Assembly (NCBI GenBank): GCA_963803145.1
Contig: CAWDLW010000020.1
Coordinates: 32,001-96,000 of the forward strand
Reading direction: 5' to 3'
DNA: 64,000 nucleotides
From: Methanotrichaceae archaeon
GTDB taxonomy: Archaea; Halobacteriota; Methanosarcinia; Methanotrichales; Methanotrichaceae
Shown here: positions 24,047 to 44,118 of the stretch, one piece after another
Layout of the letters: the number at the start of each line of letters is the position of its first letter
Position numbering within the stretch: the first letter of the stretch is position 1
Program-made: the position numbers and the translations under genes
Notes under the pieces: generated by a model
Seen by the model: the letters and a program-made list of their open reading frames with translations, nothing else
The model's database searches: none
What the model was told of the DNA's origin: nothing

Positions 24047-24177
24047 ATTCAAGAGCTACTTACTTCTGGGGCTAATACTGGCGGCCTTCTAGCGCCCTCA
24101 ATCGCCGGGCGGGCTACCCCTAACCCCTCGCTGGGGGAAGGCTTTGGAAAACGCATACTATACGGTTGAAGAGGATA
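24047..24177 (-). repeat. Structured dispersed repeat, copy A
   Basis: CTTCTGGGGCTAATACTGGCGG...CTAGCGCCCTCAATCGCCGGGCGGGCTACCCCTAACCCCTCGCTGGGGGAAGGCTTTGGAAAA; homologous to copies B-E. Confidence 0.88.
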
Positions 24178-24262
24178 TGATAGAGGAACCCCTCTATCTA
24201 TTTCGCTGAAGTGCTGAAGGGAAATTTGTGACGACACTTATTGGTCGCAATGACGGTTTATT

Positions 24263-24796
24263 TTAAGGCAAGCGAACAGTTAATCCAGAATTTGGTCCAG
24301 GAGGAAGACCAAGAGCGGGCTCTACCCCTGGGGACATCCTAAGGTCTTCCAGCAATCTCTTTGCGGAGATCCTTTTTCCAATCATTGCTTCAGACTCTGG
24401 GCGTGGTTGATTCACTTGTTTACCTCTATATACTTCAACTTCTGGAATGCTGTCTTCCATGGCTCTGGCACATAGACCGCGCACATAGAAGCGATTAAAC
24501 TCACCTTCTGCAAGAGTATCCGGTGCGTTAACAGGAACTTGGGCGATTGAAAAACTGCCGTTCTTTTTATTGCGCTTTTCAGTGGTATTCATATAACCAA
24601 GGCGACGCAATTCGCCTGCAAGCCATGCATCGTCACGACTTTGAATTGCTTCCTTCAGGAGCGAAGGATACGACTCTAAACCCTGCTGATTCAAACGAGG
24701 GCTGATATAAAGTGATCCTCTCGATATATCTAATTCCACTTCTTTCAGCATAAACTGACGTGTTCTAGCATCCAAGTTCTCATAAATTAGTGCCAT
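24263..24796 (-). CDS. Conserved-looking hypothetical protein (177 aa)
   Basis: Clean ORF with motif-like segments LAEGEFNRFYVRGLC and PPGPNSGL; co-oriented with the DUF2188 gene. Confidence 0.75.
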   Translation of the reverse strand: MALIYENLDARTRQFMLKEVELDISRGSLYISPRLNQQGLESYPSLLKEAIQSRDDAWLAGELRRLGYMNTTEKRNKKNGSFSIAQVPVNAPDTLAEGEFNRFYVRGLCARAMEDSIPEVEVYRGKQVNQPRPESEAMIGKRISAKRLLEDLRMSPGVEPALGLPPGPNSGLTVRLP

Positions 24797-24868
24797 TATC
24801 CCACCTGCGCTCGATACTTTAGGATATACATCCTCATGGGATGATATTTACGCACCTGAAAAGTTTAT

Positions 24869-25102
24869 TCACTTCTTATCTTTTGGCGGGCAAGGATCCT
24901 TGCCATAGCTATTTGACTCTCGGATCTTTCCATCCTTGCCGTGAATTATACATTCTGCTCTCTGATTTAGACATATCTCCCGTGCACGGTCGATTGCTTC
25001 AGCTTGTGTAGTGCTATGACTCGACGACTTTTCTGCATGGGGCTTCTTGACATCCCAGCCACCATCAGGGTTTTGTACAACATGCCTTTCCTTTCTTGCC
25101 AT
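24869..25102 (-). CDS. DUF2188 family protein
   Basis: HVV..PDGGWDVK...TQAEAIDRAR...IHGKDGKIRE..SYG.DP.PP pattern. Confidence 0.88.
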   Translation of the reverse strand: MARKERHVVQNPDGGWDVKKPHAEKSSSHSTTQAEAIDRAREICLNQRAECIIHGKDGKIRESNSYGKDPCPPKDKK

Positions 25103-25206
25103 TGGTTAGTTCATAGTAATATGATAATATTTAAGTTCGAGCAGTGCAGAGCGAAAGTAATTAACTATGTATAACCTATGGTTGATCCAAGAAAGAGGAG
25201 GTGTAA

Positions 25207-25479
25207 ATGAGTTCTGGTGCCAATGATTGCTGTTGTTGTGCAGGCAAGATGCGTGAGGGCAAGCATGAATTTATGGCCAGAGTTGGGGATGAGATAGTAG
25301 TCATCAAGGATGTTCCGGCTCTTGTCTGCGATATCTGCGGCGAGGTCGAATACACGCCTGAGGTATCAGAAGAGATCGATGTGATCATGGAAGACTTCTT
25401 TGCGGGGCGTCTAATGGCAAAGCCCATTGTGGCGGGAGAGGTCATGTTTAGGCCTCAGGGTGCAGACTCAACGGTATAA
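25207..25479 (+). CDS. YgiT-type zinc finger (MqsA-like antitoxin N-domain)
   Basis: CxxC...VIKDVPALVCDICGE pattern; no intact toxin upstream. Confidence 0.82.
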   Translation: MSSGANDCCCCAGKMREGKHEFMARVGDEIVVIKDVPALVCDICGEVEYTPEVSEEIDVIMEDFFAGRLMAKPIVAGEVMFRPQGADSTV

Positions 25480-25735
25480 GCATTTCTTGGGTCAGCGGAT
25501 CTCTAAAAAACTACTATCTGCAGAGCGCGCTTTGAGTGCCGTTGGAAGTGCATTCAGTGGTCAAGCCGAAAAGGCTGACGATTTACATTGAATAAGCTAA
25601 TCCAAAATATTAATCTAGCTTTGCCCCCAATTTATAATATTAGATAGCATAATTGTTTGAAATTCTCTATCAAAACCAACATCTTTAAGAAATAGATGCT
25701 TATTTAGCACTCATAGTCTGAACTAGGATGGCATT

Positions 25736-26647
25736 ATGGATAGAGTAAGCCGATCATGGTACGAACTTGCATTTGAGCGAGATTTTCTAAAGAAAACCGG
25801 CAATTCGTTCCAAGATTTCTTCTGCGAAATTATGGAAAAATGCCATCCTGGAGATTTTCAACGAATTCGTCCTTGGGGAAAATTCGGAGATAGAAAAAAT
25901 GATGGCTACTTGTCATCGGCAAGAATGCTGTTCCAAATCTATGCACCTAATGAAATTCGCCAAGCAGATACATTAGCGAAAATAAATGAGGATTTCTATG
26001 GTGCACTACCTTATTGGGAAAAATATTTTGACTCTTGGGTTTTTACACATAATTCTCGCCAAGGGCTCAGTCCAGACGTATTCAAGAGATTATTGGAACT
26101 TAAGACTGAATATACTTATTTAGAGTTCCCTTGCTGGGGTTTTGAAGAATTAAGGATAAAAGTCTTCACACTATCTGAGAGGGATATTGCATCGATTCTG
26201 GGCCTTGCACCAACAAACCAGGATCTGCTTAATGTAGGATTCTCAGAACTAAAACTCGTGCTCGGTGCCATATCTCAACAAGAACCTCTATTCGATCAAG
26301 ATATAAGTTCAATATCCAAAGAGAAGCTTACTTACAATGCTTTATCACATAGCGTGGAAGAATTGATTAAATTGGGTGCTGTTCGATCCAACCTTGTTAA
26401 GCGATTTTTTAGAGAATATAACGATCCTGAATATGGCGATAAAATTGCGCGAACATTTAGAGAAAAGTATATTGAATTGAAAAAGGAAAATAACTCCCCT
26501 GATATTATTTTTTTGAAGCTTCAGGAATTCGCTGGCGGCACAAAGCGTGGCCCACCTAAGTATGAGGCTGCTGTTTTAGCGATATTGTCATATCTCTTTC
26601 AGAGTTGCGATATCTTTGAGCATCCTGCACCTAGAGGACCACTATGA
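25736..26647 (+). CDS. ABC three-component (Lamassu-like) effector with putative PD-(D/E)xK-type nuclease N-domain
   Basis: FQDFF..IM...GDRKNDGY...FQIYAP N-domain; C-terminal K...N.L...Y...LSYLFQSCDIFE helical domain; first of three genes linked by ATGA overlaps. Confidence 0.75.
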   Translation: MDRVSRSWYELAFERDFLKKTGNSFQDFFCEIMEKCHPGDFQRIRPWGKFGDRKNDGYLSSARMLFQIYAPNEIRQADTLAKINEDFYGALPYWEKYFDSWVFTHNSRQGLSPDVFKRLLELKTEYTYLEFPCWGFEELRIKVFTLSERDIASILGLAPTNQDLLNVGFSELKLVLGAISQQEPLFDQDISSISKEKLTYNALSHSVEELIKLGAVRSNLVKRFFREYNDPEYGDKIARTFREKYIELKKENNSPDIIFLKLQEFAGGTKRGPPKYEAAVLAILSYLFQSCDIFEHPAPRGPL

Positions 26648-26880
26648 TTCTGCCTACTAAGCATTCCGGGTATGATCGCTCACTTTTGGTTCTTGGCGCG
26701 GAAATCTTGAATATCTTAAGTGTACCCAAAACGTTATCTCGTACATGGGAAGAACTCAAACGAAATAATATTAATAAAAACTACTTAACCTATGAGTGGT
26801 TTATCTTATCTTTAGACTTATTATATCTCCTAAATGCCATAGAATTTGAAAATGGATTGATTAGGAAGGTATATTTATGA
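26644..26880 (+). CDS. ABC three-component middle component (LmuC-like)
   Basis: MILPTKH...RSLL..GAEIL...F.LSLDLLY.L..I small helical protein between the effector and the ATPase. Confidence 0.78.
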   Translation: MILPTKHSGYDRSLLVLGAEILNILSVPKTLSRTWEELKRNNINKNYLTYEWFILSLDLLYLLNAIEFENGLIRKVYL

Positions 26881-28005
26881 TTTATAAAATTTTTAGCGAT
26901 TTACCTAGTTTTAAGGAAATTGATTTTCATCCAGGGTTAAATCTACTTATAGCTGATAAAAGCCCTGGAGCAACTGATCAGCAGACTAGAAACCGCGCTG
27001 GAAAAACTAGCATTATTGAGATAATTCATTTTTTATTAGGGTCCGATTGTGGGCCGGATTCCATCTTTAGATCTGAGAAACTTATAGGTTTCTCTTTTAG
27101 TATGGAATTTGATCTTGGGCACGCTATAACAATTGTAGAAAGGTCAGGGACGCGACCTAATCGGATTTTAGTAAAAACAGATAACTTTGATGCATGGCCA
27201 ATTAAGCCTGCAAAACAAAAGATAACAACTATTTCCAATTCAGAATGGAGGAACATATTAGGGTCTATTATTTTTGGGCTAAACGAAGCTGAAGATCAGA
27301 ATTTAGGAAAAAAATTTGCGCCGAGATTTAGAGCTCTTTTCTCATATTTTGCTCGTCGAGAAAGAAAAGGCGCATTTAACTCCCCGATGAAGCAATCTGA
27401 TATGCAGCAATTATGGGATCAGCAGGTAGCGCTCTCATATCTACTTGATCTAGATTGGGTTATAGCCCAGAGTTGGCAGACTGTAAGAGAACGTGAAAAG
27501 ACATTAAGGGAGTTAAGAAAGGCAGTTGGTGAAGGCGTCTTCGGAGAAGCTATCGGTACTGTCGCCAGTCTTAGAACCGAATTGACAGTAGCTGAAGAGA
27601 AAATACGACGCATAAGGCAAGAACTAAATGAGTTTAAGGTACTTCCACAATATCATGAGCTCGAAACTGAGGCTTCTAATTTAAGCCAACAATTAGGTAA
27701 ACTCTCAGATGAAAATATTATTGATCGAGAATTAATTGATAACATCGAATCATCCCTAGAACAAGAGCAACCACCTGCATTGGATGATTTATACCGTCTT
27801 TATGAAGAGGCAGGCGTATTATTGACTGATAGGATTAAGCTTCATTTCGATGACCTAAGCAAATTTCATGAATCAATAATCGAAAATAGAAAATTCTATC
27901 TATCATCTGAAATTGAGGAAGCTAACCGACGTATAAGTTCCAGAGATCATAATATGATATCTCTGTCTCGTCGGTGGTCCGAAATAATGGCACTACTCAA
28001 TTCTC

Positions 28006-29230
28006 GGTTGTGTATGTGACCTATTGAAATGGGATCCTCCAAGTCATTAACTCCTTCATAGTCCAAATATGGTCGGTAATCAATTCAACCATCGCAGGCG
28101 TTCGAGGGATCCATTTTTTAGGATTCAGAGCGAATCCCACTTCTTCCATGTCAAGGTTTATCTCAATTTTTAAAGAATCATGCGGCTTAACGAAGTTGTA
28201 CCAAGCTTGGAAAAAGTCTATTGCGCCGGTATGAATTTGCCTATCTTTACTAAAGTTCATAGACTCACGTATAAACCTGGCCAGATAATTCCTGAAAGTG
28301 AGATTCATTCGTTCGACGTAGGATGTCTGGATATGTTCTTTCGATGTTGGGCAAAGCAGTTCAAGCACATCTTTCGGGTCACCATATACAATCCGTTCAA
28401 ATGTGTTAACCACTTCATCATTCTTTTTATTTTTCACAATTTGAGCATATTTAAGGTCAGGAGGAGGAACAAGTATAGGATTTGGTTTTCTGCCTAGTCC
28501 TTTGTATTCAGGCGTCTCCTTGACACCGTAGACTTCAAGGAGGGCATTGGAAAATGGATCCCAATCATCGGAAACGAATACCGGAAGAGGTGTGCCTGTC
28601 GCCCGTCTATGTTCTAAGTCACTAAATAAGGCAGTTGCATCTTCTATAGTTCGGCCACCTTCATGATGGCAGATTAGTAACCTTGATTCAGCATTTATTG
28701 CTGTCAGACTATATACGTCACCAACGTCTTTTGAGTCATAGCTACTTACATTTTTTTGTTTTTTTACAAAATGACCATATTTCATCTATCTGCACTTGTG
28801 TAAGATGAAGATGGTTCAGGAAGTAATCATTGACCTCTTTGCAATGATCCGCTGCCCTTTTGAGCCATCGGCAGATTGTATTTTTATCATGACCTGTAGA
28901 TCTTGCAACACCACGAATACTGCCTTTTTCTACCAATTGGGCCAGGACATCTAAGACTTCCTCATCTGATGTGCTTAAACCGAAAAATATTGTTCCGCGA
29001 GTCTCGCTGAAACAATGACCACATGTTCTACACTTCAAGAGCGCACGGTTGTTCTTTCCATAGTGATCTTTTATCACTATGTTGCCTTTATCGTTTATGC
29101 CATAATCCTGGCAGCCTTCATGATGGCACCAGTAATCGGACAATGTAATATCAGACATTTTTGATACATCCCTTTTAAAGAATGTATCATTATAAACATA
29201 TAACTATTTCATCGGAACGCATACACGACC
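28006..29230 (-). mobile_element. IS1-family insertion sequence (1225 bp)
   Basis: Ends GGTTGTGTATG / CATACACGACC (10/11 complementary); 8-bp target duplication CAATTCTC at 27998-28005 and 29231-29238. Confidence 0.9.
28021..29158 (-). CDS. IS1-family transposase in two frames (InsA-like Zn-finger/HTH 28742-29158; InsB-like DDE 28021-28785)
   Basis: CxxxxC...CxxC and HTH, QIDEIWSF followed by an A7-C-A7 tract; second frame has VSDDW, TSYVERMNLTFR and FSK. Confidence 0.82.
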
Positions 29231-29891
29231 CAATTCTCATGGAGCATTAGATCAATATAGCAAAATGCAATCCAGATTATCAAAACTCGAAGCGGAAACA
29301 GAAGTCTTGCGCCAAAGATTCTCAGCTGCAGAACAGTTAGAGGGCAAGAAAACGGAATTGGATATAGAGAGAAAGCGATTGCTCGTAAGGCTTATGCAGG
29401 ATTACCAAGAAAGAAAATCTCAACTAAGCCATTCTATTATAATTTTTCAAGAAATATCTAGTTCACTCTATGAGAGTGCTGGCAATTTGACCGTTTCTGC
29501 ATCAAATAACGGCCCTATGTTCGAAGTAAAAATACAAGGGAAAGAGAGTAAGGGCATTAATAATATGCAAATATTCTGCTTTGACATTATGTTGATGGAA
29601 TTATGTTCAGAAAAAGATATAGGTCCTGGCTTCCTAGTACACGATAGCCATTTGTTTGATGGTGTTGATGAGCGTCAGATAGCCAAAGCCCTTCAACTTG
29701 GCGCTTCCACTGCAAGAGAATTTGGATTTCAGTACATAGTTACGATGAATTCTGATGACCTACCCAGAGAGCTCCCTGCTGAATTTGATCTAAAGGATTA
29801 CATTTTGCCAATACGTTTAACAGATGCTACAGAAACTGGCGGTTTATTTGGATTGATATTTTAGTTTTCTTATGCCAAAGGGAAACAAAAA

Positions 29892-30032
29892 ATGAGGAAT
29901 ACATCTTTAGAACGATATGAGCAACAGACTGAAGATTTGCATGATCTAGTGGTTGTAGTTGAGCGCAGAGAGGAAGAGCCAATTAGCCTTAAAGAGATGA
30001 AGCGCCGCCTTAAGCAAGATTGTCTCCTGTGA
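29892..30032 (+). pseudogene. Truncated orphan antitoxin (RelB-like)
   Basis: ERYEQQTEDLHDLVVVVERREEEPISLKEMKRRLKQDCLL* resembles type II antitoxin C-termini; no toxin follows. Confidence 0.55.
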
Positions 30033-30049
30033 TATTAATAAAAGGATAG

Positions 30050-30245
30050 AGCGAATAGTTGATTTTATCCCTTTCATCTTTACGGCATACGTTTTCCAAA
30101 GCCTTCCCCCGTAGAGGGGTTAGGGGCAGCCCGCGCGGCGATTGAGCGCGCTATCGTCACCGCTAGTATTAGCCCCAGAAGAATGTGTAGGCTTTGAATC
30201 ACACAAGTCTGCCCCAAACATAAAGTAATAGCGGCTCTCCAATGC
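30050..30245 (+). repeat. Structured dispersed repeat, copy B
   Basis: TTTTCCAAAGCCTTCCCCCGTAGAGGGGTTAGGGGCAGCCCGCGCGGCGATTGAGCGCGCTA...TTAGCCCCAGAAGAA; colinear with copy C over about 195 bp. Confidence 0.9.
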
Positions 30246-30329
30246 ATGTTATGAAATTATGCTCGGCAATAGCTATATCTTAGAAAAGCTGAATTATTCT
30301 CTGGCATTGCATTTTCACCGATCAATGCC

Positions 30330-30350
30330 GGGATGGGCATTTCCCATCCC
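30330..30350. terminator. Perfect 8-bp hairpin immediately after the AbrB gene
   Basis: GGGATGGG-CATTT-CCCATCCC. Confidence 0.45.
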
Positions 30351-30352
30351 AC

Positions 30353-30499
30353 CTAATCCTTAGATGGCGTTCTCTTTTGGATTTTGATTTCTACTATATC
30401 GCCTGGCTTGATCCCTAAGAGATCCCTTACAGATTCCGGTATAGTCACTCTTCCGAGTTGCATTACTTTAACTGTGAATATGGCACTGTCTTCAGGCAT
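30353..30499 (-). CDS. AbrB/MazE/SpoVT DNA-binding protein (48 aa)
   Basis: Manual translation MPEDSAIFTVKVMQLGRVTIPESVRDLLGIKPGDIVEIKI; below the ORF-track cutoff. Confidence 0.85.
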   Translation of the reverse strand: MPEDSAIFTVKVMQLGRVTIPESVRDLLGIKPGDIVEIKIQKRTPSKD

Positions 30500-30739
30500 A
30501 TTCGGTATTTTAATCCCTGTAGTATATAATATTATCCTATTAAATACTCTTAAATACGTTAAAATACTTTCAGAGTATTTGGTGAAAATGCAATGGCTAG
30601 AAGAACAATCTTTGAGGATAAACTAGAATTTCAATCATCAGAGCTAATTTGGCGCTATCATGAAGACAGTTGTCCGAATATCCTAACGGCGAATATTCGA
30701 GGCATCTCTCAGGAAATCACAAAGGCAGAGGCGATCTAA

Positions 30740-31357
30740 TTGCCCCCCACAAACCACCCCGAAAACGCCGATCTGGTAGCGACCGATCCCGCAATCGCAG
30801 ATGATTCAGCAACCACGGGCACGCTATCAGATCTCACCACAACACTAGCCGAACTCCAGCCCCTCGCCTCCAAAATCACCGATCTGCAAAAGCAAACCCT
30901 TGAAAAAGAATCCTCAATCCTAAAAGCGATCCTGGAGAAGCTCAAGCCTCTGGTGCCTCTGCTGAGTGAAGACTGCGAGCAATGTTACCGCCGTGAGATT
31001 GTCATCCTGACCAGAGAAGAGAAAGTGCAGCTTGAGGAAGGTTCCGGCTTTTTCAGCGAGCACAGGCTGATTCTCTACGAGAACGGCCTGCTGGCGAGGA
31101 CGCATCGCTATGGCCAATCTGTAGACCACGGCCAATCTATGGACCATGGCCAATTATCGGAAGCTTTGCACCTGGGATGGGAAAACACCGACGAGGATGT
31201 GCTCACACCCGAGGCGGCCATAATCGCATTCGGTTTCATGGCCATTTCAACGGGCTTGATAGAGGCTATTGGTGAGACTTCATCGATGGCTATCCGCAAA
31301 GAGGAGCTTGAGGGCAGGCTGGCGGCTTTAACCAAGGTGCTGGAAGCTATAAGGTAA
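30740..31357 (+). CDS. Hypothetical protein with an internal 18-bp tandem repeat
   Basis: 205-aa ORF (TTG start, uncertain); GQSVDH-GQSMDH-GQLS repeat. Confidence 0.6.
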   Translation: MPPTNHPENADLVATDPAIADDSATTGTLSDLTTTLAELQPLASKITDLQKQTLEKESSILKAILEKLKPLVPLLSEDCEQCYRREIVILTREEKVQLEEGSGFFSEHRLILYENGLLARTHRYGQSVDHGQSMDHGQLSEALHLGWENTDEDVLTPEAAIIAFGFMAISTGLIEAIGETSSMAIRKEELEGRLAALTKVLEAIR

Positions 31358-31515
31358 GACAAATGCCAGCGAATAGAAATGCCAGCAGGCAGAATAGAGC
31401 AAATGACATAGGCGATCTGCCTATATTGGGTTGCTGAGCATCAGATGAGGTAGCGCTTTGATCGACCATCAACCTTTTTATCCTTTTAATACTGCTATTT
31501 TCCAAGGGCTGTGGA

Positions 31516-32625
31516 ATGAAGAATGATAAGTCCTCTCTGGCGGGAAATATCAGATCGCAGGATTTGCCGCCCAAATATGCCGAGCTTCTGGCAGAGCTGA
31601 AGGCACAGATCCGCTCTGCTCAGTTGAAAGCGGCGCTGTCTGTTAACCGTGAGCTGGTCTTGCTTTATTGGCGAATTGGCAGGCAGATCCTTGAGAACCA
31701 ACGGCAAGAAGGCTGGGGATCGAAGGTTATCGACCGGCTGTCAAGGGATCTGCGCATAGCCTTTCCAGAGATGAAGGGTTTCTCGCCGCGCAATCTGAAG
31801 TACATGAGGGCATTTGCTGATGCTTATCCAACTGAATCATTTGTGCAAGAGGTGCTTGCACAAATTACCTGGTATCACAATATTACTCTTTTAGACAAGA
31901 TCAGAAAACCCGAGGAACGCGAATTCTATGTTCGCAAGACCATTGAGCACGGCTGGAGCAGAAACGTTCTCGTCCATCAGATCGAGAGCGACCTGTACCA
32001 CAGGCAGGGCAACGCCATCGCCAACTTCGACCGCACCCTACCTGCTCCACAATCTGAGCTGGCCCAGCAGATCCTCAAAGATCCCTATAACTTCGACTTT
32101 CTGGGCCTAAGCGTTGAGGTTCAAGAGCGCGATCTTGAGCATGCCCTGATCCAGCACATACGCGAGTTCCTGCTTGAGCTTGGTGTGGGCTTTGCCTTCG
32201 TGGGCAGCCAGTATCATCTGGAAGTAGGAGGCGAGGACTTTTACATCGATCTGCTCTTCTATCACCTGCATCTGCGCTGCTATGTGGTCATAGATCTGAA
32301 GGTCTGCGAGTTCCAGCCGGAGTTTGCGGGAAAGATGAACTTCTATCTCTCTGCCGTGGACGACCTGCTCAGGCATGAAGATGATAGACCTTCTATTGGG
32401 CTAATCCTTTGCAAGACCAGAAACCGAATCATTGTGGAATATGCCATGAGGGATACGTTGAAGCCCATGGGTGTGGCCGCTTACCAGATTACAGCTTCAC
32501 TGCCGGAACACCTCAAGGGTAGCCTGCCGACAGTTGAGGAGCTGGAGAGGGAGATGAGGGATGCAAACGGAGAAGGAAATGAAGGATCTGGCTCAGACAG
32601 ATATAGGAATCCTCCTGGACACTAA
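31516..32625 (+). CDS. YhcG/DUF1016 PDDEXK nuclease-domain protein
   Basis: VNRELVLLYWRIG, GFSPRNLKYMRAF, KDPYNFDFL, FLLELGVGFAFVG.Q, IDLLFYH..LRCYVVIDLK and GKMNFYL motifs. Confidence 0.95.
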   Translation: MKNDKSSLAGNIRSQDLPPKYAELLAELKAQIRSAQLKAALSVNRELVLLYWRIGRQILENQRQEGWGSKVIDRLSRDLRIAFPEMKGFSPRNLKYMRAFADAYPTESFVQEVLAQITWYHNITLLDKIRKPEEREFYVRKTIEHGWSRNVLVHQIESDLYHRQGNAIANFDRTLPAPQSELAQQILKDPYNFDFLGLSVEVQERDLEHALIQHIREFLLELGVGFAFVGSQYHLEVGGEDFYIDLLFYHLHLRCYVVIDLKVCEFQPEFAGKMNFYLSAVDDLLRHEDDRPSIGLILCKTRNRIIVEYAMRDTLKPMGVAAYQITASLPEHLKGSLPTVEELEREMRDANGEGNEGSGSDRYRNPPGH

Positions 32626-32659
32626 AAGAACACCTTTAGACGCTTCGGCACAATTGATT

Positions 32660-32855
32660 GAGGGAATAGTTAATCCTATCCTTTTAATCTTATAGCTTGT
32701 ATTTTCCAAAGCCTTCCCCCAGCGAGGGGTTAGGGGCAGCTCGCACGGCGACTACAGCGCGCTAGTAAACCGCTAGTGTTAGCCCCAGAAGAACGATTAG
32801 GCTTTGAACTACACAAGTCAGTCCAAAACACAAAGTAAGAGTATCTCTCTAATGT
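32660..32855 (+). repeat. Structured dispersed repeat, copy C
   Basis: TTTTCCAAAGCCTTCCCCCAGCGAGGGGTTAGGGGCAGCTCGCACGGCGACTACAGCGCGCTAGTAAACCGCTAGTGTTAGCCCCAGAAGAA. Confidence 0.9.
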
Positions 32856-32961: not shown

Positions 32962-33264
32962 ATGGACAAATTCGAGGCCCTGAGGGATAAGGTACTGCCC
33001 TTGCTCAGGCCATACGTGAAACGCATTGCTGTTTTCGGCTCCTTTGCTCGTGGTGAGGAGACTCCAGAGAGCGATATTGATCTCATGGTTGAGCTAAAGC
33101 CTCCAGAACAGCGCCCGTCCTTGGGCTTGAAGTGGTTTGGCCTGGAAGACGAGCTGAGTCGCATCCTGGGCAGAGAAGTCGAACTGGTAACTGAGGGCGC
33201 TCTTAGCCCTTATATAAAACCGTATGCGGAGAGGGATATGGTCCTGCTCTATGAAGAAGGATGA
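32962..33264 (+). CDS. mntA: Minimal nucleotidyltransferase (MNT) antitoxin
   Basis: FGSFARGEETPESDIDL (GSx10DxD) motif. Confidence 0.9.
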   Translation: MDKFEALRDKVLPLLRPYVKRIAVFGSFARGEETPESDIDLMVELKPPEQRPSLGLKWFGLEDELSRILGREVELVTEGALSPYIKPYAERDMVLLYEEG

Positions 33265-33586
33265 CACGGTCTATCTTCGCCATATAATCGATTCATGTGA
33301 GCGGATAGAGCATTACATGGAAGGCATCCCTAAGGATAAGTTCTTCGAAACAGAGTTACTGCAGGACGCCGTCATAAGGCAATTGGAGATAATAGGTGAG
33401 GCCGCATGTAACCTTTCCGATGATTTGAGGCTAAGCAATCCTCAGGTTCCTTGGCGCCAGATGGTAGGCTTAAGAAACAGGGTTATTCATGCCTACTTTG
33501 AGGTTAATCCTCAGATCATCTGGGAAATTACCAAAGGTGATCTCCCTGCTTTAAAGCAAGAAATTAAGCAGATCTTAGGAAGTTGA
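33251..33586 (+). CDS. hepT: HEPN/DUF86 RNase toxin
   Basis: Start MKKDDTVYLRHI at 33251, overlapping MNT; RNRVIHAY (Rx4HxY) motif. Confidence 0.9.
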   Translation: MKKDDTVYLRHIIDSCERIEHYMEGIPKDKFFETELLQDAVIRQLEIIGEAACNLSDDLRLSNPQVPWRQMVGLRNRVIHAYFEVNPQIIWEITKGDLPALKQEIKQILGS

Positions 33587-33615
33587 GGAAGAGTATGAAA
33601 TAGTCGAGGAAGAGT

Positions 33616-33843
33616 ATGAAATGTTTGATTTGCAAGCAAGCCTTCACCCAAGCAGGCACAACTACCGTGACCCTGGAGCGTGGTTGCCTGACTATGGTGG
33701 TGAAATGCGTGTCAGCTCAGGTCTGTCCCAACTGTGGCGAAGCTTACGTAGACGAAACTGTGGCCGAGGATCTATTGAACACTGCTGAGCAGGCAGCTCG
33801 CACAGGCGCTCAAGTCGAGGTTCGGCAGTATGTAGCTGCATAA
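33616..33843 (+). CDS. YgiT-type zinc finger (MqsA-like), orphan
   Basis: MKCLICK...VSAQVCPNCGEAY; preceded by a 17-bp direct repeat GAGGAAGAGTATGAAAT. Confidence 0.85.
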   Translation: MKCLICKQAFTQAGTTTVTLERGCLTMVVKCVSAQVCPNCGEAYVDETVAEDLLNTAEQAARTGAQVEVRQYVAA

Positions 33844-33871
33844 TATCGTAGAACATTTTCATCTACGATTT

Positions 33872-36391: not shown

Positions 36392-36672
36392 TTGAGATCC
36401 CCAAATTATTTCTAAAATATTGGCATGTACAGGTATAAATTTCTTAGCTATTGGCCATATTCTGAGAAGAGTGGAAGAATAATCTGCTGCAGAATCTACT
36501 GCAGAATATCCTGGCATTTAGATCGTTTGAGATCATTCAAACAGCCAATTTCCGAGCCTATCAAAATAGACTACCTTTAACTATACTGACGATAACATCT
36601 TTGCACTTAAAGCAAAAATTTATAATTTATTATGAGGGAATTCTTATGGAAAAACTTGTTGGGGAAATGTAA

Positions 36673-38275
36673 ATGATATTTCTTAAAAGACTTATGGTGT
36701 TTGCCATAATTGCATTTATGCTTTTTACCTCGATCGTAAATGCAGCCAATATGAACGCTACGAACTCCCAAAACCAGACCGGCAACTTTTCCGCCGGTTT
36801 GCAGGAGGTCCTGGCTGGGCCGCAATACAGTCATGCCTGGTGGGGCCTGATTGTAGAAGACCTAAACACGGGAAAGGTCCTTTATGAGCTCAACCCTGAA
36901 AATATGTTCATCCCTGGCTCCACAGCCAAGCTCTATACAGTTGCCGCTGCCCTGGATACATTTGGAAAGGATTACAGATTTACTACCCCCATCTACGCAC
37001 ATGGGAATGTGAATGATTCAGGGGTGCTCAATGGAGACCTCATCCTGGTTGCCAGCGGAGATCTGACCATGGGAGGCCGCACAACGCCTGACGGCAGAAT
37101 CGCTTACACCAACATGGACCATGGCGATGCCAACGCTCTTGGCAATGCCACCCTGACCGAGCAGGATCCACTGGCAGGCCTGAACGATCTCGCCAGGCAG
37201 GTTCGCAGGATCCGGCATCAAAAGCATTTCGGGAGATGTGATCATCGATGACAGACTCTTCAATATTACACCCTCACCAGACCCGTCAGCAGGTTATATC
37301 ATAACGCCCATTATAATAAACGATAACCTTATAGATCTTACTATCAAGCCCGCTTTGCCGGGAGATATGGCAGAGGTCGATTGGAGACCAAAGACCTCGG
37401 TTTATCAGGTTCAGTCTAATGTGAAGACCGCTCCCCCAGGCACGCCAACCCAAATCGAAGTGGATTCTAACAATGTAAATGGGATAACCACAATAACCCT
37501 GAAAGGTCGGATCGCCTCCGACAACGGCCCAATAGTCCGAACCCAGCAAGTGGAGGACCCTTCATCCTTCGCCAGATCGCTGCTCATTGAGGCACTGGAA
37601 TGAAACAAAGTCTCTGTGAATGCATCGCTAAAGGCTAATAACCCTTCAGAAAAGCTGCCATCCTCAGAGATTTATGCCAACTCAAAACCAGTAGCTCTCC
37701 TAATATCCCCGCCCTTTTCGGAGAATGCGAAACTGATCCTCAAAGTCAGCCAGAATATGCAGGCCGATACTCTTGTATCCCTCATGGCAGCAGAGCACGG
37801 TAACCGCAGCTTTGAGGATGGCCTGAAATCTGAGCGCCCGTTCTTCAAGAAAGCAGGGGTAGATCTAAACGCTATCTCTCTAGGAGATGGCCGTGGTAGC
37901 GTTTGGTCCGACCTGACTGCGCCGAACGCTACGCTACAACTCTTGCGCTATATGTCCGATAGCTCGAACTCCCGAGTGTATAAAGATGCTCTGCCAATTT
38001 TGGGCGTAGACGGCAGCCTTTCCGATGTGAGCAAGAGCAGTCCTGCAAAGGGAAATGTCTGGGCCAAGACTGGAACTGTGGTGGTTTATGATGGCGTCAA
38101 CGACCGACCATTAGTCTTAGCCAAAACTCTGGCAGGATACATAAACTCATCCTCGGGCAGAAGCCTAGCCTTCGCAGCTTATGTGAACAATGTCCCTGTT
38201 AACGATGTCAATTCTGCACTCCAGGTAGGAAATGATCTGGGACGCGTTGCGGAGCTGATTTATGAGAACTATTAG
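36673..38275 (+). pseudogene. dacB: Peptidase S13 D-Ala-D-Ala carboxypeptidase/endopeptidase, frameshift plus nonsense
   Basis: Signal peptide; SxxK (GSTAK), SxN (SQN) and KTG motifs spread over three ORFs; frameshift near 37207 and in-frame TGA at 37601-37603. Confidence 0.9.
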
Positions 38276-38584
38276 TGGAGGTGAGGATTTCAAAGGGCCC
38301 TAAGTAATCCTTGCTGAGTCTTTATAAGGTATCTTAAAGAGGTCTGGCTATAACCTGGCATCAATCTCGACTGTGTCATCGCCCAGCTCTGCATTTGGAG
38401 TTGATTTGTGTTATAGATTAGTATCATTATTACTACTTTTATCATTCTATTAACTATTTTTTTTACATGAAGCAATCACTAATTATAGTTAGCCGATAAA
38501 ATCCATTTTCATACGTTCTTATGCAGATTCAAGAGAACCGTTAAATATTCAGATATACAATTGTGAATCCAAGGTGATAATGAA

Positions 38585-38737
38585 ATGTGCACAGTTGGTG
38601 GCGGGCCTGATGTCGGTGAAATTGAGACTGTAGCGGCTAAGGACTATGAGTGCCTAGATTGTAAAAACAAATTCAAGGCTATGGGCAGAAGGCCTATGTG
38701 TCCTTCCTGCAAATCAAGGAACGTGAAGCAGGCATAA
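38585..38737 (+). CDS. Small zinc-ribbon protein (50 aa)
   Basis: MCTVGGG...YECLDCKNKFKAMGRRPMCPSCKSRNV (two CxxC); GGTGA SD; missed by the ORF track. Confidence 0.8.
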   Translation: MCTVGGGPDVGEIETVAAKDYECLDCKNKFKAMGRRPMCPSCKSRNVKQA

Positions 38738-38745
38738 GCTAAATC

Positions 38746-39210
38746 ATGCGCATATCGCTTAAAGAGAACGAGATCGCCTATCTTTGTGGCCAAAGTGGAA
38801 CGATTGCATTGGCCAAAACTCTCGGCAACTTTTTTTACCTTGAGACCGAGAAAGAGGAGATAGTCCTCTTTACCGAACCGGATGACCTGATGGTAGCATC
38901 AGCTTTCGGTGTAGGAGATAGAATTCGTCGAGGTCTAAGGTGTACCATTTATCAGATCAGGGATCTTGGAGCGCCGCTGATCGTTCTGCCCAAAGGCCAT
39001 CCAGCATCCCCGAGGCTTAAGACTGTTGTATCCATTGGCCCAAAAACGAGATTAAGCTGTAAAATACAGCCTGGGACCCATCCCGAGCAGGATATACTCT
39101 GCGGCCCAGATGAGTTTCATAGCCTGGAGATATTAGCAGAGCCAGAAGGAGCATTGATCAACGGCCTGAAAGAGGACTTCAGTGATCATATAATTATCGA
39201 AAAATTATAG
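38746..39210 (+). CDS. Conserved hypothetical methanogen protein
   Basis: 154-aa ORF in an apparent operon; PGTHPEQD motif. Confidence 0.7.
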   Translation: MRISLKENEIAYLCGQSGTIALAKTLGNFFYLETEKEEIVLFTEPDDLMVASAFGVGDRIRRGLRCTIYQIRDLGAPLIVLPKGHPASPRLKTVVSIGPKTRLSCKIQPGTHPEQDILCGPDEFHSLEILAEPEGALINGLKEDFSDHIIIEKL

Positions 39211-39233
39211 GTTAAAATTGTAGGTGATAAACC

Positions 39234-39512
39234 TTGGCAGAGATAAGAGAAGATAGCCTTGTCAGATATAAAGGCACAGGCACAATCGGTACTGTAAAGG
39301 TTCTGAAGGAGGAGGATGGGCAGAAGTGGGCATTTCTTGATAGCACAGGCCTTTACTACAGATTGGATACCCTCGAGCCGATTGAAGCGGCTCCTGAACG
39401 CAAGGAGCTGGAGGGCATGACTCTGGAGCAAATCCAGGAACGCTTCAAAGCACACCAGGAGATCATGGATAAGGCAAAGATGCAGGATGAAAGCTTGGAA
39501 TCAGGCGGATAG
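39234..39512 (+). CDS. DUF2098 family protein
   Basis: VRYKGTGTIGTV...WAFLDSTGLYY and C-terminal GG; TTG start after GGTGA. Confidence 0.8.
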   Translation: MAEIREDSLVRYKGTGTIGTVKVLKEEDGQKWAFLDSTGLYYRLDTLEPIEAAPERKELEGMTLEQIQERFKAHQEIMDKAKMQDESLESGG

Positions 39513-40677
39513 AAATAGGATCGGGGTAGTAATTCATGGCCCTGAAGTCATAGATTCAGGCGCAGCCAGGAAGCTGATAAACTACCTTCAGAAATTCGGC
39601 ATCGTTACGGCAATCCTTGGCGGCACAATGGGCAGGCTGGCTATTATTGATGCCGGCCTTGATGATATAATAGCCATAAGCCCAAAAAGGAAGCCAAGCG
39701 AATCCCTTAGGGATCTCCAGGCCACCTCGGATATGTTGATTCTTATTAACCAGGCAAAGACAAAGGAGACCGCCATGGCCTTTGGCTCCAGAATAGCCGA
39801 TAATGCCAAAGCCACCAAGCCACTCATCCAAATTGACTGCGGCGGAAAGTTCATTGCGATATTAACAGGCGGTGGGGAAAACCTGGCTGAGAGATTATCA
39901 AAGGATCTAGGCCTTGATCTGCTGAATATTGCAGAATCTCAAAATGGCAAAGAGGGCAATATAACACATGAGGGCAATGTTACAAAGCGCAGACTGACAG
40001 GGGTTATGACCGGCGAACTCATAACGGTAAATGGAATAGTGATAGCTAAAGCGATAGATAATTCAATAGAGATCGAAGCCAGTAACAAAAGGATTGTAAA
40101 AGTAAACGGCGCAGAGATGAAGCTCCACGGCATTGAAAAGCTTCCTCCATTAGACCTGGAAAGAGCGGTCATCCGCAGCGGTATTATCAGGCGAACTAAT
40201 GCAAAGCCAGGGAAGGCCTTGAAGTGTAAAGGGAATTGGGCGGTGCTAATAAACCATAATGCTGAGGATGCCTTCGAAATATCAAAGGATGCTTGCATTG
40301 CTGTAACAGTTGGCGATGATACGACGGCTATCGCAAGAGAAATTCTCTCCCGGCTCGGTATACCTATCATCGGGATAATAGATGGCGATCTTGATGGACT
40401 TTCAGGTAATAAAGATAAGGACAACACTAACATCATTGCTGATATAGCTACTGATACTATTGATATCATTAATACAACTAATATTATGACAAATGCCGCC
40501 ACCCAAAATGGCAGCACCATAATCAGGGTAGAACCAGGATATGATGATGTGATTGGTGCTCAAGTGAAAGAGAAAATATTCATTGGCGTTAACAGAGCAC
40601 AAATTAAGACGAGCGAACTTTTAGACAGGATAAGGGAGATTGCTGGAAGCCATATAACCACGATTGAAAGATTCTAG
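39487..40677 (+). CDS. DUF2117 family protein
   Basis: IGVVIHGPEVIDSG, GGTMGR.A..DA, VTVGDDTT and GIIDGD motifs. Confidence 0.85.
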   Translation: MKAWNQADRNRIGVVIHGPEVIDSGAARKLINYLQKFGIVTAILGGTMGRLAIIDAGLDDIIAISPKRKPSESLRDLQATSDMLILINQAKTKETAMAFGSRIADNAKATKPLIQIDCGGKFIAILTGGGENLAERLSKDLGLDLLNIAESQNGKEGNITHEGNVTKRRLTGVMTGELITVNGIVIAKAIDNSIEIEASNKRIVKVNGAEMKLHGIEKLPPLDLERAVIRSGIIRRTNAKPGKALKCKGNWAVLINHNAEDAFEISKDACIAVTVGDDTTAIAREILSRLGIPIIGIIDGDLDGLSGNKDKDNTNIIADIATDTIDIINTTNIMTNAATQNGSTIIRVEPGYDDVIGAQVKEKIFIGVNRAQIKTSELLDRIREIAGSHITTIERF

Positions 40678-40678
40678 T

Positions 40679-42319
40679 TCAGAATACTTTCAGCTCATCG
40701 ATGAACGCTGGCCTTCTGCGGTTTTCCTGCCGAAGCTTGCTGATGAACTCTGCAAACTCGCCCTCGAATCCTCTTATTTCGCTCATCTTCCTGAGATAAG
40801 ATACAACCTCCTGGTAGTGTCTCCTGCCTGTTTCAATCCCTGCGAACGAATGAATCAGCTCACGGTATGCCTGGAAATATTCATTAGGATAGCGGTCTGC
40901 CAGGTCTTTATGATACTTCGCTAGGAGAGAGAGGCTCCTTGACTCCAGTAACCTCTTGAAGGCGGTATCGTACATCCCCTCCCTCAAATAGACATCAATT
41001 AATCTAGCTAAACTAAAGCGATCTTGAGAAAGGCTATTAATAATTCTCAATAATATATCGTTCCAGGATTCTGGGAATCTTGTCTTCATTGCTTCATAAT
41101 ATTTCCACTCATTGGTGTTCAGAAATAGCCATAATAGATTCTCTTTATATTTCTCGATATCAGAGTGCTCATAGAGCTCGCTCAGGAACACTCTGATGGG
41201 TTTTGTTTGATAATCGGGAAAAAGAGAGGAGCATTCCTCAGCCACCTTTACGGACTGCTCAAGATTACCGTCTTCTTTGAGCGACATGGCATATGACAAG
41301 CATAGATTAGGACTATGTTGATAGTATTGCTCGACGAGGTCATAGTAGTCGTTCTTCCTCTCAAGAGCCCATAGTAGTCGCAGCTTTGTTGAGATAAGCG
41401 CCAGTTTTCGATATGCCTTTTCTGCATCAATCTCCTCTTGCAGATATGGTTCCATGAGTTCCAGCACGTACTCGCGGTCCTCTCTGGATACGCATAGCTC
41501 CTCCATAGCCTGGAGGTACTCGTCCTCGAAATATTGAGTACCACCAATATATTTTTCGAAGAGATACTTTAGAGGATTTCTTCTTGCCTTGGCGTTAAGA
41601 TTTGCGCTTTTAATACAGTTGACGTAATTGCTTAGATAATTTGAGAATTTGCTCTCATAATATCCGCTGGACTCATCTATGGATTCCATCCTCTCATCGA
41701 TACTCTCGAAGAGGGCCTGGTAGATCTTTGCTGCCTCAAGAAAGCTCTTTTTCCTTATGTTGATTTCAGCAAGCTGCTCGAAGGGGGAGAAGTCAACCTC
41801 AGGCCCATAGTAGATTTCATCATCATATATCCCAGTCTCCCTGAAAAGCTTGCCTATCTCTCTCTTATAATCATGAATGCTCTTCAGATCACCGCTTCGG
41901 GAAAACCAGGTCATAAAATGGGTCCTTAGAGAAGGAAACTGCTCCATTTCATTGTGCAGGAATTCCCTCAGCTCCAAAGGATCTGCTTCTTTCAGTAAGG
42001 CCAAAGCTGCCTCCTGATCATGACGGCTCTTGGACATCATGACCTCGATTTCTTCTTTGTTATCGAGCATCGACAAAAGGACGGCTACAATATGCTTGCA
42101 GTATCCTTCCAGGTCGTAAGGGCAGTTGCACTCGGCCGATATCCCATTCTTTAGATCTACTTTAACATTGTACTTCTCAGTCCCCTGGACTTCAGCAGTC
42201 ACTCCTGTGGGTGATGCCCCTAGAATACTCACCCGGCCTTCATCGAGGTACCTCTTTCCGCGCTCGAAGGAGGCTTCTGTGCATAATTTTCTTACATCAT
42301 CGACTCCAAAATTCATCAA
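40679..42319 (-). CDS. SWIM zinc-finger protein with helical C-terminus
   Basis: SFERGKRY, V.G...Y.V, CNCPY....CKHIVAVL; C-terminal RRRPAFIDEL. Confidence 0.88.
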   Translation of the reverse strand: MMNFGVDDVRKLCTEASFERGKRYLDEGRVSILGASPTGVTAEVQGTEKYNVKVDLKNGISAECNCPYDLEGYCKHIVAVLLSMLDNKEEIEVMMSKSRHDQEAALALLKEADPLELREFLHNEMEQFPSLRTHFMTWFSRSGDLKSIHDYKREIGKLFRETGIYDDEIYYGPEVDFSPFEQLAEINIRKKSFLEAAKIYQALFESIDERMESIDESSGYYESKFSNYLSNYVNCIKSANLNAKARRNPLKYLFEKYIGGTQYFEDEYLQAMEELCVSREDREYVLELMEPYLQEEIDAEKAYRKLALISTKLRLLWALERKNDYYDLVEQYYQHSPNLCLSYAMSLKEDGNLEQSVKVAEECSSLFPDYQTKPIRVFLSELYEHSDIEKYKENLLWLFLNTNEWKYYEAMKTRFPESWNDILLRIINSLSQDRFSLARLIDVYLREGMYDTAFKRLLESRSLSLLAKYHKDLADRYPNEYFQAYRELIHSFAGIETGRRHYQEVVSYLRKMSEIRGFEGEFAEFISKLRQENRRRPAFIDELKVF

Positions 42320-42400
42320 ATTTTATATACATTTTCTACATTTATATATTCTGCTAATGCAGCAAAGATGAAATCTTTGAAGCATCCCTAATTATGATTT

Positions 42401-42995
42401 ATGGCAAAAACAGCTAAAGGCTCTTCAGATCAGTCAGAGCCTTTGACAGTTTACCAGCTTAAGGTGACCCTCGAAAGAATAAGACCGCCCATCTGGCGGA
42501 GGATCCAGGTTCGCGGGGACATATCGCTATTCAAGCTTCACAAGATCTTACAAGAGGTCATGGGCTGGTATGACTACCATCTACACCAGCTCCTTATTGA
42601 TGGCGAGAGATACAGCGTTATTTCCAGGGAGGCAGATATGCTGGGAGATGATTTCAAGGACGAGAAAAGGGTCAGGCTGAACAGAGTCATCCCTGGGGAG
42701 AAGTTCGAGTTCACCTATGAGTACGACTTTGGGGATAGCTGGCTATCATAAGATCCTGGTGGAGAAGATCTTCAAGCCTGATGAGGAGTTGACGCATCCT
42801 GTTTGCCTGAAGGGCAAGCGTTCTGCCCCTCCGGAGGACTGTGGCGGAGTTGGCGGATACTACCATCTACGGGAGGCTCTCAGAGATAAAGATCACCCGG
42901 ATCATGAATATCTGATGGAGTGGACGGGAGATGAATACGATCCAGAGCATTTCAATATCGAGGAAGTGAATGAAAGGTTGAAGAAGATCAGGTGA
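42401..42995 (+). pseudogene. Plasmid pRiA4b ORF-3 family protein, frameshifted
   Basis: YQLKVTL...PPIWRRI, YEYDFGDSW, then a frameshift near 42742 to HKILVE...PPEDCGG. Confidence 0.88.
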
Positions 42996-43041
42996 ATGTT
43001 GGTATAAGGATTCATATGTAGCCAAAAAGCAAGGGATAACA

Positions 43042-43485
43042 ATGAAAGAAGAGAAAGATGGACTGAGCATGATAAAACCCACATCGTTCTATTCCAGTGA
43101 AAGCGAGAAAATAAAATTAAACTGGTTTTGTTACGAATTATCAATAGAAATATATGATAATATGAAAAAGCGTATGGGAAATCGATTAAAGAGAAAAGGA
43201 ATCAGTGACGAAGTTCTTGCTGAATTTTCAATTAATATATCGAAAAGCATGAAAGACATCATACTAGAAAAGCTGTCGGGCAGGATCAAGAAGGTATATT
43301 TTTGCCATGAAATGATAGAACGGAATTTTCCGAATCTCGATGATAGGACGATCAATAGAATGCTGAATATTATTTCAAGAACGTGGGATAAAATGCTCAG
43401 CAATTGTGAAGTATGCCCTACACGATGCATAAGCGATAAAGATGCATATTGTGCCATGTTCAATGTTAAAGATCTCTTTACATGA
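43042..43485 (+). CDS. Hypothetical protein with C-terminal Cys cluster
   Basis: 147-aa AT-rich ORF containing CEVCPTRC...C. Confidence 0.65.
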   Translation: MKEEKDGLSMIKPTSFYSSESEKIKLNWFCYELSIEIYDNMKKRMGNRLKRKGISDEVLAEFSINISKSMKDIILEKLSGRIKKVYFCHEMIERNFPNLDDRTINRMLNIISRTWDKMLSNCEVCPTRCISDKDAYCAMFNVKDLFT

Positions 43486-43506
43486 GCCTCGCCAAGAGAT
43501 GTAGAT

Positions 43507-43725
43507 ATGAAGATAAGCTATGATCGTGAAGTGGACGTTCTCACCCTTGAGTTCTCGGATGGCGACATAGACCATGCAGAGGAAGCAGGGCCGACGATAA
43601 TCCATCTCACTGAGGATAACAGGCCCGTTCTCATTGAGATCCTGGATGCCAGCGATTTTCTGGCCAGCCTAACCAAGATTTCCGCCAGAGCTGCGAGCAG
43701 AGAGGCAGTGGAAATCGAATCATAG
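43507..43725 (+). CDS. DUF2283 family protein (putative orphan antitoxin)
   Basis: MKISYDREVDVL...IEILDAS pattern. Confidence 0.85.
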   Translation: MKISYDREVDVLTLEFSDGDIDHAEEAGPTIIHLTEDNRPVLIEILDASDFLASLTKISARAASREAVEIES

Positions 43726-43848
43726 AATTTTGCTCAACTTTTATCCGCTTGGAAGGGCTACTCTTCATAAAGATTAATGATTTTCTAAGAAATTCGGCTT
43801 ATCGCAAATAATTCGTCCCTCTTTGTATTCCTTGTTCCAGCTATTATG

Positions 43849-43919
43849 ATTCAAGAAACTACACTTCTTCTAGGGCTAATGCTAACGACCTTCTAGCGCG
43901 CTCAGTCGCCATGCGGGCT
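43849..43919 (-). repeat. Structured dispersed repeat, copy D (partial)
   Basis: TTCAAG...CTTCTAGGGCTAATGCTAACGACCTTCTAGCGCGCTCAGTCGCCATGCGGGCT; truncated before the second hairpin. Confidence 0.8.
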
Positions 43920-43987
43920 TCAGAGACTGCAATCCAAGGCGTATATTTCAGAACCGCTTTGACTTCGTATTTGTGCCAGCTAATTTA

Positions 43988-44118
43988 ATCCAAAGCCTAC
44001 GCTTTCTTTTTGGGCTAACACTAATGGTTATACTAGCGTGCTCAATCGCCGCACGGGCTACCCCTAACCCCTCTTCGGGGGAAGGTTTGGATTGCCTGGA
44101 ATACGGATAAGAGAGGAT
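43988..44118 (-). repeat. Structured dispersed repeat, copy E
   Basis: GGGCTAACACTAATGG...CTAGCGTGCTCAATCGCCGCACGGGCTACCCCTAACCCCTCTTCGGGGGAAGG. Confidence 0.88.

Follow-up and report, generated by a model that had tools for sequence, protein, structure and literature searches.

A stretch of 64,000 nucleotides from a Methanotrichaceae archaeon (assembly GCA_963803145.1, contig CAWDLW010000020.1, positions 32,001 to 96,000; hereafter the window) contains a structured repeat that lies among toxin-antitoxin and defence genes. Inspection of the window sequence confirmed that five copies (A to E) and a stub are present where a preliminary description had placed them, and that the stems spelled out there were correct (for copy A, CGCCC/GGGCG at 24093-24111). 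When the window was scanned with a covariance model trained on 43 copies, exactly five matches were obtained, with nothing else at E ≤ 1; in model terms, copies A, D and E lie on the + strand and copies B and C on the - strand. The conserved core consists, in order, of TAG, a 5-bp hairpin around TCARTCGCC, GGCT, RCCCC, TAA and a CCCC/GGGG hairpin. The left half of the repeat comprises an arm, TAG, the 5-bp covarying hairpin and GGCT, and the right half comprises RCCCC, TAA, the CCCC/GGGG hairpin and a tail.

Copy A (24027..24184, +) is complete, with its core at 24088-24144 as placed by the covariance model and the breakpoint between the halves after 24115, between GGGCT and ACCCC. Its left arm is shortened, beside an IS630-type insertion sequence (IS) element, which occupies 22960-23965 immediately to the left and has helix-turn-helix and DDE_3 frames and terminal inverted repeats. 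Copy B (30055..30236, -; core 30099-30155, left half ending at 30128) and copy C (32666..32842, -; core 32709-32766, left half ending at 32738) are also complete, the latter with a variant loop. The block between A and B (24263..29864) holds a 177-aa gene, a DUF2188 gene and ABC-three-component defence genes (Lamassu-like, PADLOC PDC-M68A/B; 25736-29864), the ATPase of which is interrupted by an IS1-family element at ~28021-29260. The inverted bracketing of this block by A and B, put forward in the preliminary description, turned out to be a minority arrangement, the arrays of the genome being direct repeats. From the co-oriented copies C and B, the 2.6 kb between their breakpoints (30128..32738, -) may be regarded as a putative cassette. 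It would consist of the right half of C, a YhcG/DUF1016 PD-(D/E)XK nuclease gene as cargo (31516..32625, +; PADLOC PDC-S02), the stub (31469..31510, -), a 205-aa gene (30740..31357, +) and the left half of B. Sequence comparison identified the stub, behind the 205-aa gene, as a distal right tail without the core. The 205-aa gene belongs to a multicopy family of ~190-aa proteins with a coiled coil and a four-stranded sheet, which is frequent cargo. The left side of C is occupied by an MNT-HepT toxin-antitoxin pair with a YgiT/MqsA-like zinc finger (32962..33843, +), and that of D by a 147-aa gene and a DUF2283 gene (43042..43725, +).

Copy D (43833..43919, +; partial model match 43892-43942) is a left half only, which ends exactly at the breakpoint with GGGCT. 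The next base starts the left half of E, a gene-free unit of 140 nt (43920..44059, +) that is inserted at the D breakpoint, begins with TCAGAG and ends with GGGCT; it is termed the mini-cassette here. Behind it lies a right half with the ACCCCTAACCCC hairpin and a tail (44060..44125, +), the full E core being matched at 44032-44088. The identity between the left half of E and D is 69%, which equals background. A scan for partial copies over the whole genome (G000; 4.13 Mb, 51 contigs, 99% complete) and the stored loci showed that the breakpoint directly after GGCT is sharp. Among 25 left-only rows, 14 were true left halves, every one ending at GGCT-like bases, two extended four bases further, and nine were right-half variants or likely chance matches. 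The hairpin was retained as a loop variant in 22 of 23 right-only rows, the last one being another repeat.

Nine tandems of two left halves followed by one right half were compared. The inserted unit was 131-145 nt long in eight of them and 171 nt in one, and because it was only 59-74% identical to its own upstream half, local tandem duplication was rejected as its source. Three units at unrelated loci on two contigs were 87-92% mutually identical, whereas their surroundings at the same three loci were at background: 67-76% for the upstream halves, 58-61% for the right halves and 45-53% for the flanks. Such similar units within dissimilar surroundings indicate that a discrete gene-free cassette moved into the same position of different copies. 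Where the unit does not stand behind another copy, its left end follows GCGTTCT: the pattern picked up three such ends, and in each of them GCGTTCT precedes TCAAG. Both ends of the unit thus follow CT. Contigs from four DNA sequencing runs ended at the repeats, and no breakpoint was mapped in them.

In the genome, a nucleotide profile gave 122 matches at E < 1e-5 and 99 at E < 1e-15, whereas the best match on the reversed genome had an E of 8.0, demonstrating that the copies are not chance matches. The 100 copies scoring at least 55 bits, on which the grouping and array counts rest, fell into 55 groups: 36 copies stood alone, and 64 copies were clustered in 11 pairs, 4 triples and four runs of 4, 7, 9 and 10. 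Neighbouring copies were spaced at 0.3-4 kb in 38 pairs; random placement would give 8.3 such pairs and never produced more than 18 in 1000 trials. Of the 38 pairs, 34 had the same orientation. In the arrays, the direct-repeat sites part modules of one to three genes rich in toxin-antitoxin genes. Their cargo includes HicAB, PIN genes with UPF0175, AbrB or DUF2281 partners, MNT-HepT, PemK, DUF4258/DUF2283 and ParE, together with acylphosphatase-like genes, nucleases and the recurring ~190-aa gene. All PIN, HicA and HepT matches of the genome (35, or 34 after two adjacent pieces were merged) were used to measure this association: 18 of the 34 toxin genes lie within 1 kb of a copy, compared with 10.6% of 1486 small open reading frames (ORFs) from our own ORF caller (p ~1e-9). 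Two rules drawn from the window failed genome-wide. The accessory gene has no fixed orientation, the right-side gene facing the copy in 46 of 97 cases and facing away in 51; and copies are not confined to accessory regions, some of them adjoining housekeeping genes, so the window-based rules are not general. Near-identical copies on contigs C9, C17 and C38 were rejected as a mobile unit. They sit in a housekeeping stretch with an RNase P RNA-like gene that occurs three times (C9:1-5750, C17:252825-257187 and C38:42718-48041; 98.5-99.9% identical), probably reflecting assembly redundancy or strain mixture.

The flanks were compared for 150 copies from this genome and its relatives. Among them, 33 pairs shared the left flank, 51 the right and 6 both; when IS110-bearing copies were dropped, 7 pairs shared the left only, 43 the right only and 5 both, these five being orthologous sites or an assembly duplicate. 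Left-arm and right-tail identity between copies were uncorrelated (r -0.006) in a set that includes the IS110-bearing copies, and identity within the element tracked the shared side as far as the core. Orthologous arrays in genome G002 have the same flanking housekeeping genes and different modules inside. A module starts with the right half, and the same module can turn up again after another left half. At locus L001, each of three successive copies has the start of an epimerase gene behind it; two of these starts are truncated, and a HicAB pair comes after each of the two. Truncated right-flank repeats are also seen in other arrays. In five comparisons of filled and empty orthologous sites, the element had been gained or lost together with 0.2-1.9 kb. 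No terminal inverted repeats or target duplication of a classical miniature inverted-repeat transposable element were found in the five comparisons, and the ends were variable. The non-autonomous mobile element considered in the preliminary description is also partly borne out, by the presence and absence of copies at orthologous sites. The IS110-family element (419-aa transposase) occurs on C8, C9, C15, C18, C23, C27, C34 and C42 (e.g. L002:8364-9623), with eight of its nine full copies at one position of the left arm of the repeat, and offers a ready case for bridge RNA target prediction.

The preliminary description had proposed one covarying stem around a conserved loop, set in a three-way junction. 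The stem held in 77 copies, with compensatory changes at two neighbouring pairs: the middle pair of the hairpin was GC in 42 copies, CG in 22, AT in 5 and GT in 5, and the pair next to it CG in 62, TA in 11 and TG in 2. The loop is present as TCARTCGCC, with variants. Across 43 copies from several genomes, 93.4% of the cells were paired (88.7% in shuffles, the value being reached by 0 of 500) and double changes occurred in 27 cells (0 of 500 shuffles); both-sided change was seen in just 2 of 12 pairs, a number reached by 468 of 500 shuffles. The GGGG/CCCC closing stem showed no compensatory change, only its layout being kept in other genera, where a different hairpin stands in for the CTA/TAG hairpin. 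TAG has two possible partners, CTA upstream and CT(A/G) downstream, so the three-way junction is only one of two folds. Folding energies were unremarkable (mean z -0.2 to -0.9, 40 copies). As judged from these alignments, selection on structure is confined to one short stem, and the remainder is mostly sequence conservation. Departures in the TAG:CT(R) pairing were 47 G.T compared with 2 A.C, which indicates the + strand of the model. In this genus the hairpin is preceded by TAG or TGG, usually as CTAG or ATAG. At the gathering score, Rfam families matched only rRNA and tRNA in the window, and E-value scans added only sub-threshold scraps; the repeat matched no family.

Covariance-model matches were obtained in 33 of 105 genomes of the family, with at least 53 copies in G000, at least 53 in G002, 45 in G001, 24 in G023, 22 in G016, 21 in G011, 13 in G102 and 9 in G015, most of genus g2 having one and g6, g8, g12 and g13 having hardly any. 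There was no match in 150 other genomes drawn from the phylum, and the exact pattern found 52 loci in 185,579 species genomes, in five assemblies that are all Methanotrichaceae. Plasmid and phage collections gave no match, and the genus-g1 pattern was found in 0 viral contigs. A variant pattern was found in six IMG/VR contigs and 27 metagenome stretches, many of them viral; the terminase, portal and capsid genes on element-bearing contigs identify these as tailed viruses. It is probable that the site entered the chromosomes from such viruses.

The preliminary description suggested a cassette-boundary or recombination site that gathers defence genes. Four findings support this suggestion: the breakpoint, the mobility of the mini-cassette, the shuffling of the flanks and the enrichment of toxin genes. 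The site may also act as folded single-stranded DNA, as was likewise suggested there. Read from the sequences, the breakpoint is fixed, the mini-cassette discrete, the flanks shuffled at the core, the arrays co-oriented and rich in toxin genes, and the site present in viruses. On balance, we consider it somewhat probable that the repeat is a site-specific insertion site that builds integron-like cassette arrays. Incoming DNA with a left half at its 3' end would be joined between GGCT and R of a resident copy, converting left-right into left, cargo with a second left half, and right; this joining is seen for the mini-cassette and would apply to gene cassettes as well. If the cargo starts with a right half, a full cassette from breakpoint to breakpoint (0.5-3.6 kb) would result, and if it starts at a secondary site, also after CT, an empty unit of 131-145 nt. 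Repeated insertion would then yield direct-repeat arrays of toxin-antitoxin and defence modules, with order and content differing between species. The model + strand may fold as single-stranded DNA, and AG at the hairpin foot may select CT. In repetitive extragenic palindrome (REP) and IS200/IS605 processing, a tetranucleotide guide 5' of the hairpin selects the cut, A3G4 of GTAG picking CT, as described in the available part of PMC8266576. The guide-like AG before the hairpin and the break after CT resemble this geometry. Relaxases such as TrwC integrate DNA into a resident site beside an inverted repeat, as the accessible part of PMC3264647 describes. Tentatively, a HUH-type nick-and-transfer enzyme may act in trans, either viral or from another mobile element. 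It is conceivable, if somewhat short of probable, that the system is an archaeal counterpart of the integron, in which HUH-like nicking replaces the tyrosine recombinase, a virus-derived folded site, amplified to ~100 copies, allows one methanogen lineage to acquire, stack and rearrange toxin-antitoxin and defence cassettes, the enzyme is supplied in trans, and tailed viruses carry the site and swap their own immunity modules there.

A number of observations weigh against this interpretation. In the main hairpin, A.C departures (14) exceed G.T (11); AG at the hairpin foot never changes jointly with CT, and in other genera GGGG replaces TAG. The stub in the window has only the right tail. Because the core is so conserved, crossovers of gene cassettes can be located no more closely than to a few tens of bases, and their shuffling could be due to homologous exchange. 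The filled and empty sites have ragged ends on both sides that a precise model leaves unexplained, most left-only junctions represent one unit type with few others, and the duplication junctions in the viral loci L130 and L132 lie 230-330 nt right of the breakpoint. Moreover, 36 of 100 copies are solitary, the remaining 16 of 34 toxin genes are >3 kb from any copy, and the cargo may face either way. The genomes were all assembled from metagenomes, and one stretch with near-identical copies is triplicated in that of G000.

The search for an enzyme adds to these points. The preliminary description noted no cognate recombinase in the window, and none was found in the genome either. Integron integrase TIGR02249 gave 18 weak matches in G000, the best at 48.8 bits against a cut-off of 265. 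REP-associated tyrosine transposases (RAYT, NF047646) gave nothing over the cut-off in five element-bearing genomes, weak matches being IS200-type. The TrwC relaxase (PF08751) was found in 0 of 105 genomes, MOB-P, -Q, -V, -H, Rep_1, Rep_2 and Rep_trans not having been profile-searched, and PF10412 (TrwB) gave only short N-terminal P-loop matches. Reverse transcriptase PF00078 was not found in G000 (control positive in 3 of 14), and the Y2 (IS91) transposase had no match in G000, with the control genomes equally silent. A motif scan of our own ORF set of G000 returned eight proteins, among which the only HUH transposases were three IS200 TnpA copies with unrelated ends; a visual check of 13 TnpB-like and 6 TnpA loci found no end resembling the repeat. 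Y1 transposases occur in 79 of 105 genomes and in neither G015 nor G102, and a small tyrosine recombinase found beside L088 occurs in 28 of 105 and not in G001, G015, G016 or genus g10; neither tracks the element. The 13 tyrosine recombinase matches of G000 were set aside, none adjoining an array and the nearest being ~4.4 kb away. The ~190-aa protein was likewise rejected as a recombinase, since it occurs in 13 of 105 genomes, once in G001, and is absent from G015 and G016. Its model (pLDDT 83) is a coiled coil with a sheet, the best structural match (Z 6.8, Pur-alpha) being under the level of common arrangements, and it matched no viral fold at E ≤ 0.001; the protein is cargo. The family (window 30740-31357; L003:12564-13145; 20+ other loci) is known only from Methanotrichaceae-type sequences and has no Pfam or PHROG family, its relatives with named taxa being Methanotrichaceae or uncultured archaea. 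Usually a gene for ~70 aa stands upstream, accompanied by a small repressor-like gene in divergent orientation.

The integron is the textbook platform for gene cassettes, and its attC sites are bounded by R'' (RYYYAAC) and R' (GTTRRRY) boxes with the crossover between G and TT. In the repeat, the crossover position is after GGCT, and the two boxes were found in 0 of 100 copies on either strand. Integron arrays (attC/IntI), including archaeal integrons and clusters of attC sites lacking an integrase (CALINs), resemble the arrays described here, as far as the available part of PMC9668308 describes them: in both, direct-repeat sites part mobile modules in which toxin-antitoxin and anti-phage genes abound, some cassettes are empty, the content varies between relatives and the site is probably folded. 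In contrast, the repeat has no long single hairpin and no IntI over the cut-off, its cargo lies in both orientations and many sites are solitary.

The closest rival is a selfish miniature element of the type of REPs and bacterial interspersed mosaic elements (BIMEs), which would spread by itself, leaving ragged flanks and GGCT tandems, while toxin-antitoxin genes survive in tolerant regions and are reshuffled by homologous recombination. The repeat resembles REP/BIMEs with TnpA-REP (RAYT) and IS200/IS605 right ends (PMC8266576, PMC6006769) in its ~100 intergenic copies, its tandem units and the IS110 element that targets it, and apparently also in its short hairpin, which TAG precedes at the 5' foot and a break after CT follows on the 3' side. 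The ~100 intergenic copies, more than a third of them alone (36), the gains and losses without cargo and the inverted pairs in G011, G023 and G016 fit such an element, and the preference of IS110 for one left-arm position resembles that of IS110 elements in REPs, according to the available part of PMC12288879. However, the neighbours are direct in 34 of 38 pairs rather than alternating, with one to three genes between them, and the recurrence of modules behind different left halves, beginning at the right half, is not anticipated. The repeat is also longer, multi-hairpin and archaeal, forms direct arrays with gene cargo and lacks a RAYT. In the available part of PMC6006769, REP-type sites with their own enzyme are described in bacteria only, and the only Y1 enzymes seen in archaea are of the IS200 subclass. 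Guide and cut site do not covary as in REP and IS200/IS605 elements, and the repeat is unlike the IS200/IS605 ends in G000. We regard this explanation as rather unlikely.

Less probable still is that the repeat derives from a viral origin or packaging site (pac/cos-like) of which copies reached the chromosome. A viral enzyme would cut or initiate there and the host repair the ends, giving a fixed GGCT end and a variable end, with the virus ferrying neighbouring genes. In L112, L113, L114, L130 and L132 the core lies inside a conserved, structured 500-nt region beside an inverted repeat, between an operon led by a small ribbon-helix-helix-like, repressor-like gene and a SWIM-like and ArdC operon (the latter arrangement seen in L130, L132, L150 and L152). 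Several viruses have a duplication of this region along with inserted genes, and in L130 and L132 one duplicate lacks the right hairpin from GGCT on. A 100-nt form separates two late genes in L131, L133, L134 and L135, ~1.6 kb ahead of the terminase. Truncated right-flank repeats in arrays, such as the three epimerase starts in L001, would also be accommodated. Nevertheless, the site is optional: it is absent between the same two late genes in L137, its positions differ between viruses, and no copy was found in a provirus on C23; a 140-nt unit with two precise ends is left unexplained. This provirus (C23:84000-135000, ~50 kb, with terminase-like, tail-like and integrase genes) is related to the element-bearing viruses. 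Comparison with the oriT/nic sites of relaxases such as TrwC (available part of PMC3264647) shows a shared inverted repeat 5' of the nick and integration into a resident copy, and a viral ArdC gene stands on the side that would lead; yet no TrwC is present in the 105 genomes, TrwB matches cover short P-loop stretches only, unlike a MOB-F system, and the carriers are tailed viruses. In rolling-circle elements of the IS91/ISCR and Helitron types, one end is defined by a hairpin, the other is variable, and gene fragments are captured. The repeat resembles them in these three features and differs in having no orphan right halves at outer boundaries.

It is highly improbable that the repeat is a structured RNA, whether a small RNA, a leader or a 3' element, which acts on the transcripts of adjacent toxin-antitoxin genes: the compensatory changes and one-strand G.T bias suit RNA as well as single-stranded DNA, but the orientation to neighbouring genes is not fixed, the two halves have independent histories, folding z-scores are near zero, precise DNA insertions are not predicted by RNA function, and the new non-coding RNA family offered in the preliminary description gained no positive support.

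A literature search, with most subscription journals and supplements outside it, found no description of the repeat. If the insertion-site interpretation is true, acetate-using methanogens would possess a second, unrelated cassette system, and evolution would have arrived at stacked defence modules once more, by way of a different site and probably a different chemistry. The assembly of toxin-antitoxin islands in these genomes would be accounted for, host defence arrays would be tied to the non-coding DNA of viruses, and a novel site-specific enzyme with a ~60-nt target would be expected, possibly useful for archaeal genetics. Even if REP-like, the repeat would represent an archaeal family not described before, and one whose breakpoint is mapped.

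Several further observations were made in the viruses. The non-coding 500-nt region of these Methanothrix-type tailed viruses (L112:14615-15180; also L130, L132, L113 and L114) separates divergent early operons, has an inverted repeat at its end and has no Rfam match; the repressor gene changes in step with the matching operator-like repeats on both sides, the swap lying at the left edge of the region. A 124-aa viral zinc-finger protein with an HxH motif was discarded as a candidate enzyme, having no informative atlas match and occurring in neither L112 nor G000. For the SWIM-like viral protein of 250 aa there are 121 relatives, with no Pfam family listed. In L131, L133, L134 and L135, a ~900-1040-aa protein with ATP-dependent DNA ligase and uracil-DNA glycosylase domains is encoded right after the portal gene. 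In G000, a second repeat family, composed of a hairpin, GGCT and then a CCCTCACCCC-type hairpin, occurs in or beside left arms (C9:4330-4490, C8:500722-500821; also L024 and L026), and a variant was seen in inverted orientation at C11:58.5 kb and C18:81.6 kb. Elsewhere in the window, direct and inverted repeats of 43-558 nt lie at 862-945, 11340-11518 and 17869-18665, including two inverted DUF308 paralogues (86% over 558 nt). A 68-nt direct repeat with 180-nt spacing follows the 5S rRNA gene on its downstream side (44239-44486), and 53771-53891 holds three AT-rich repeats of 43 nt in a 26-nt register.

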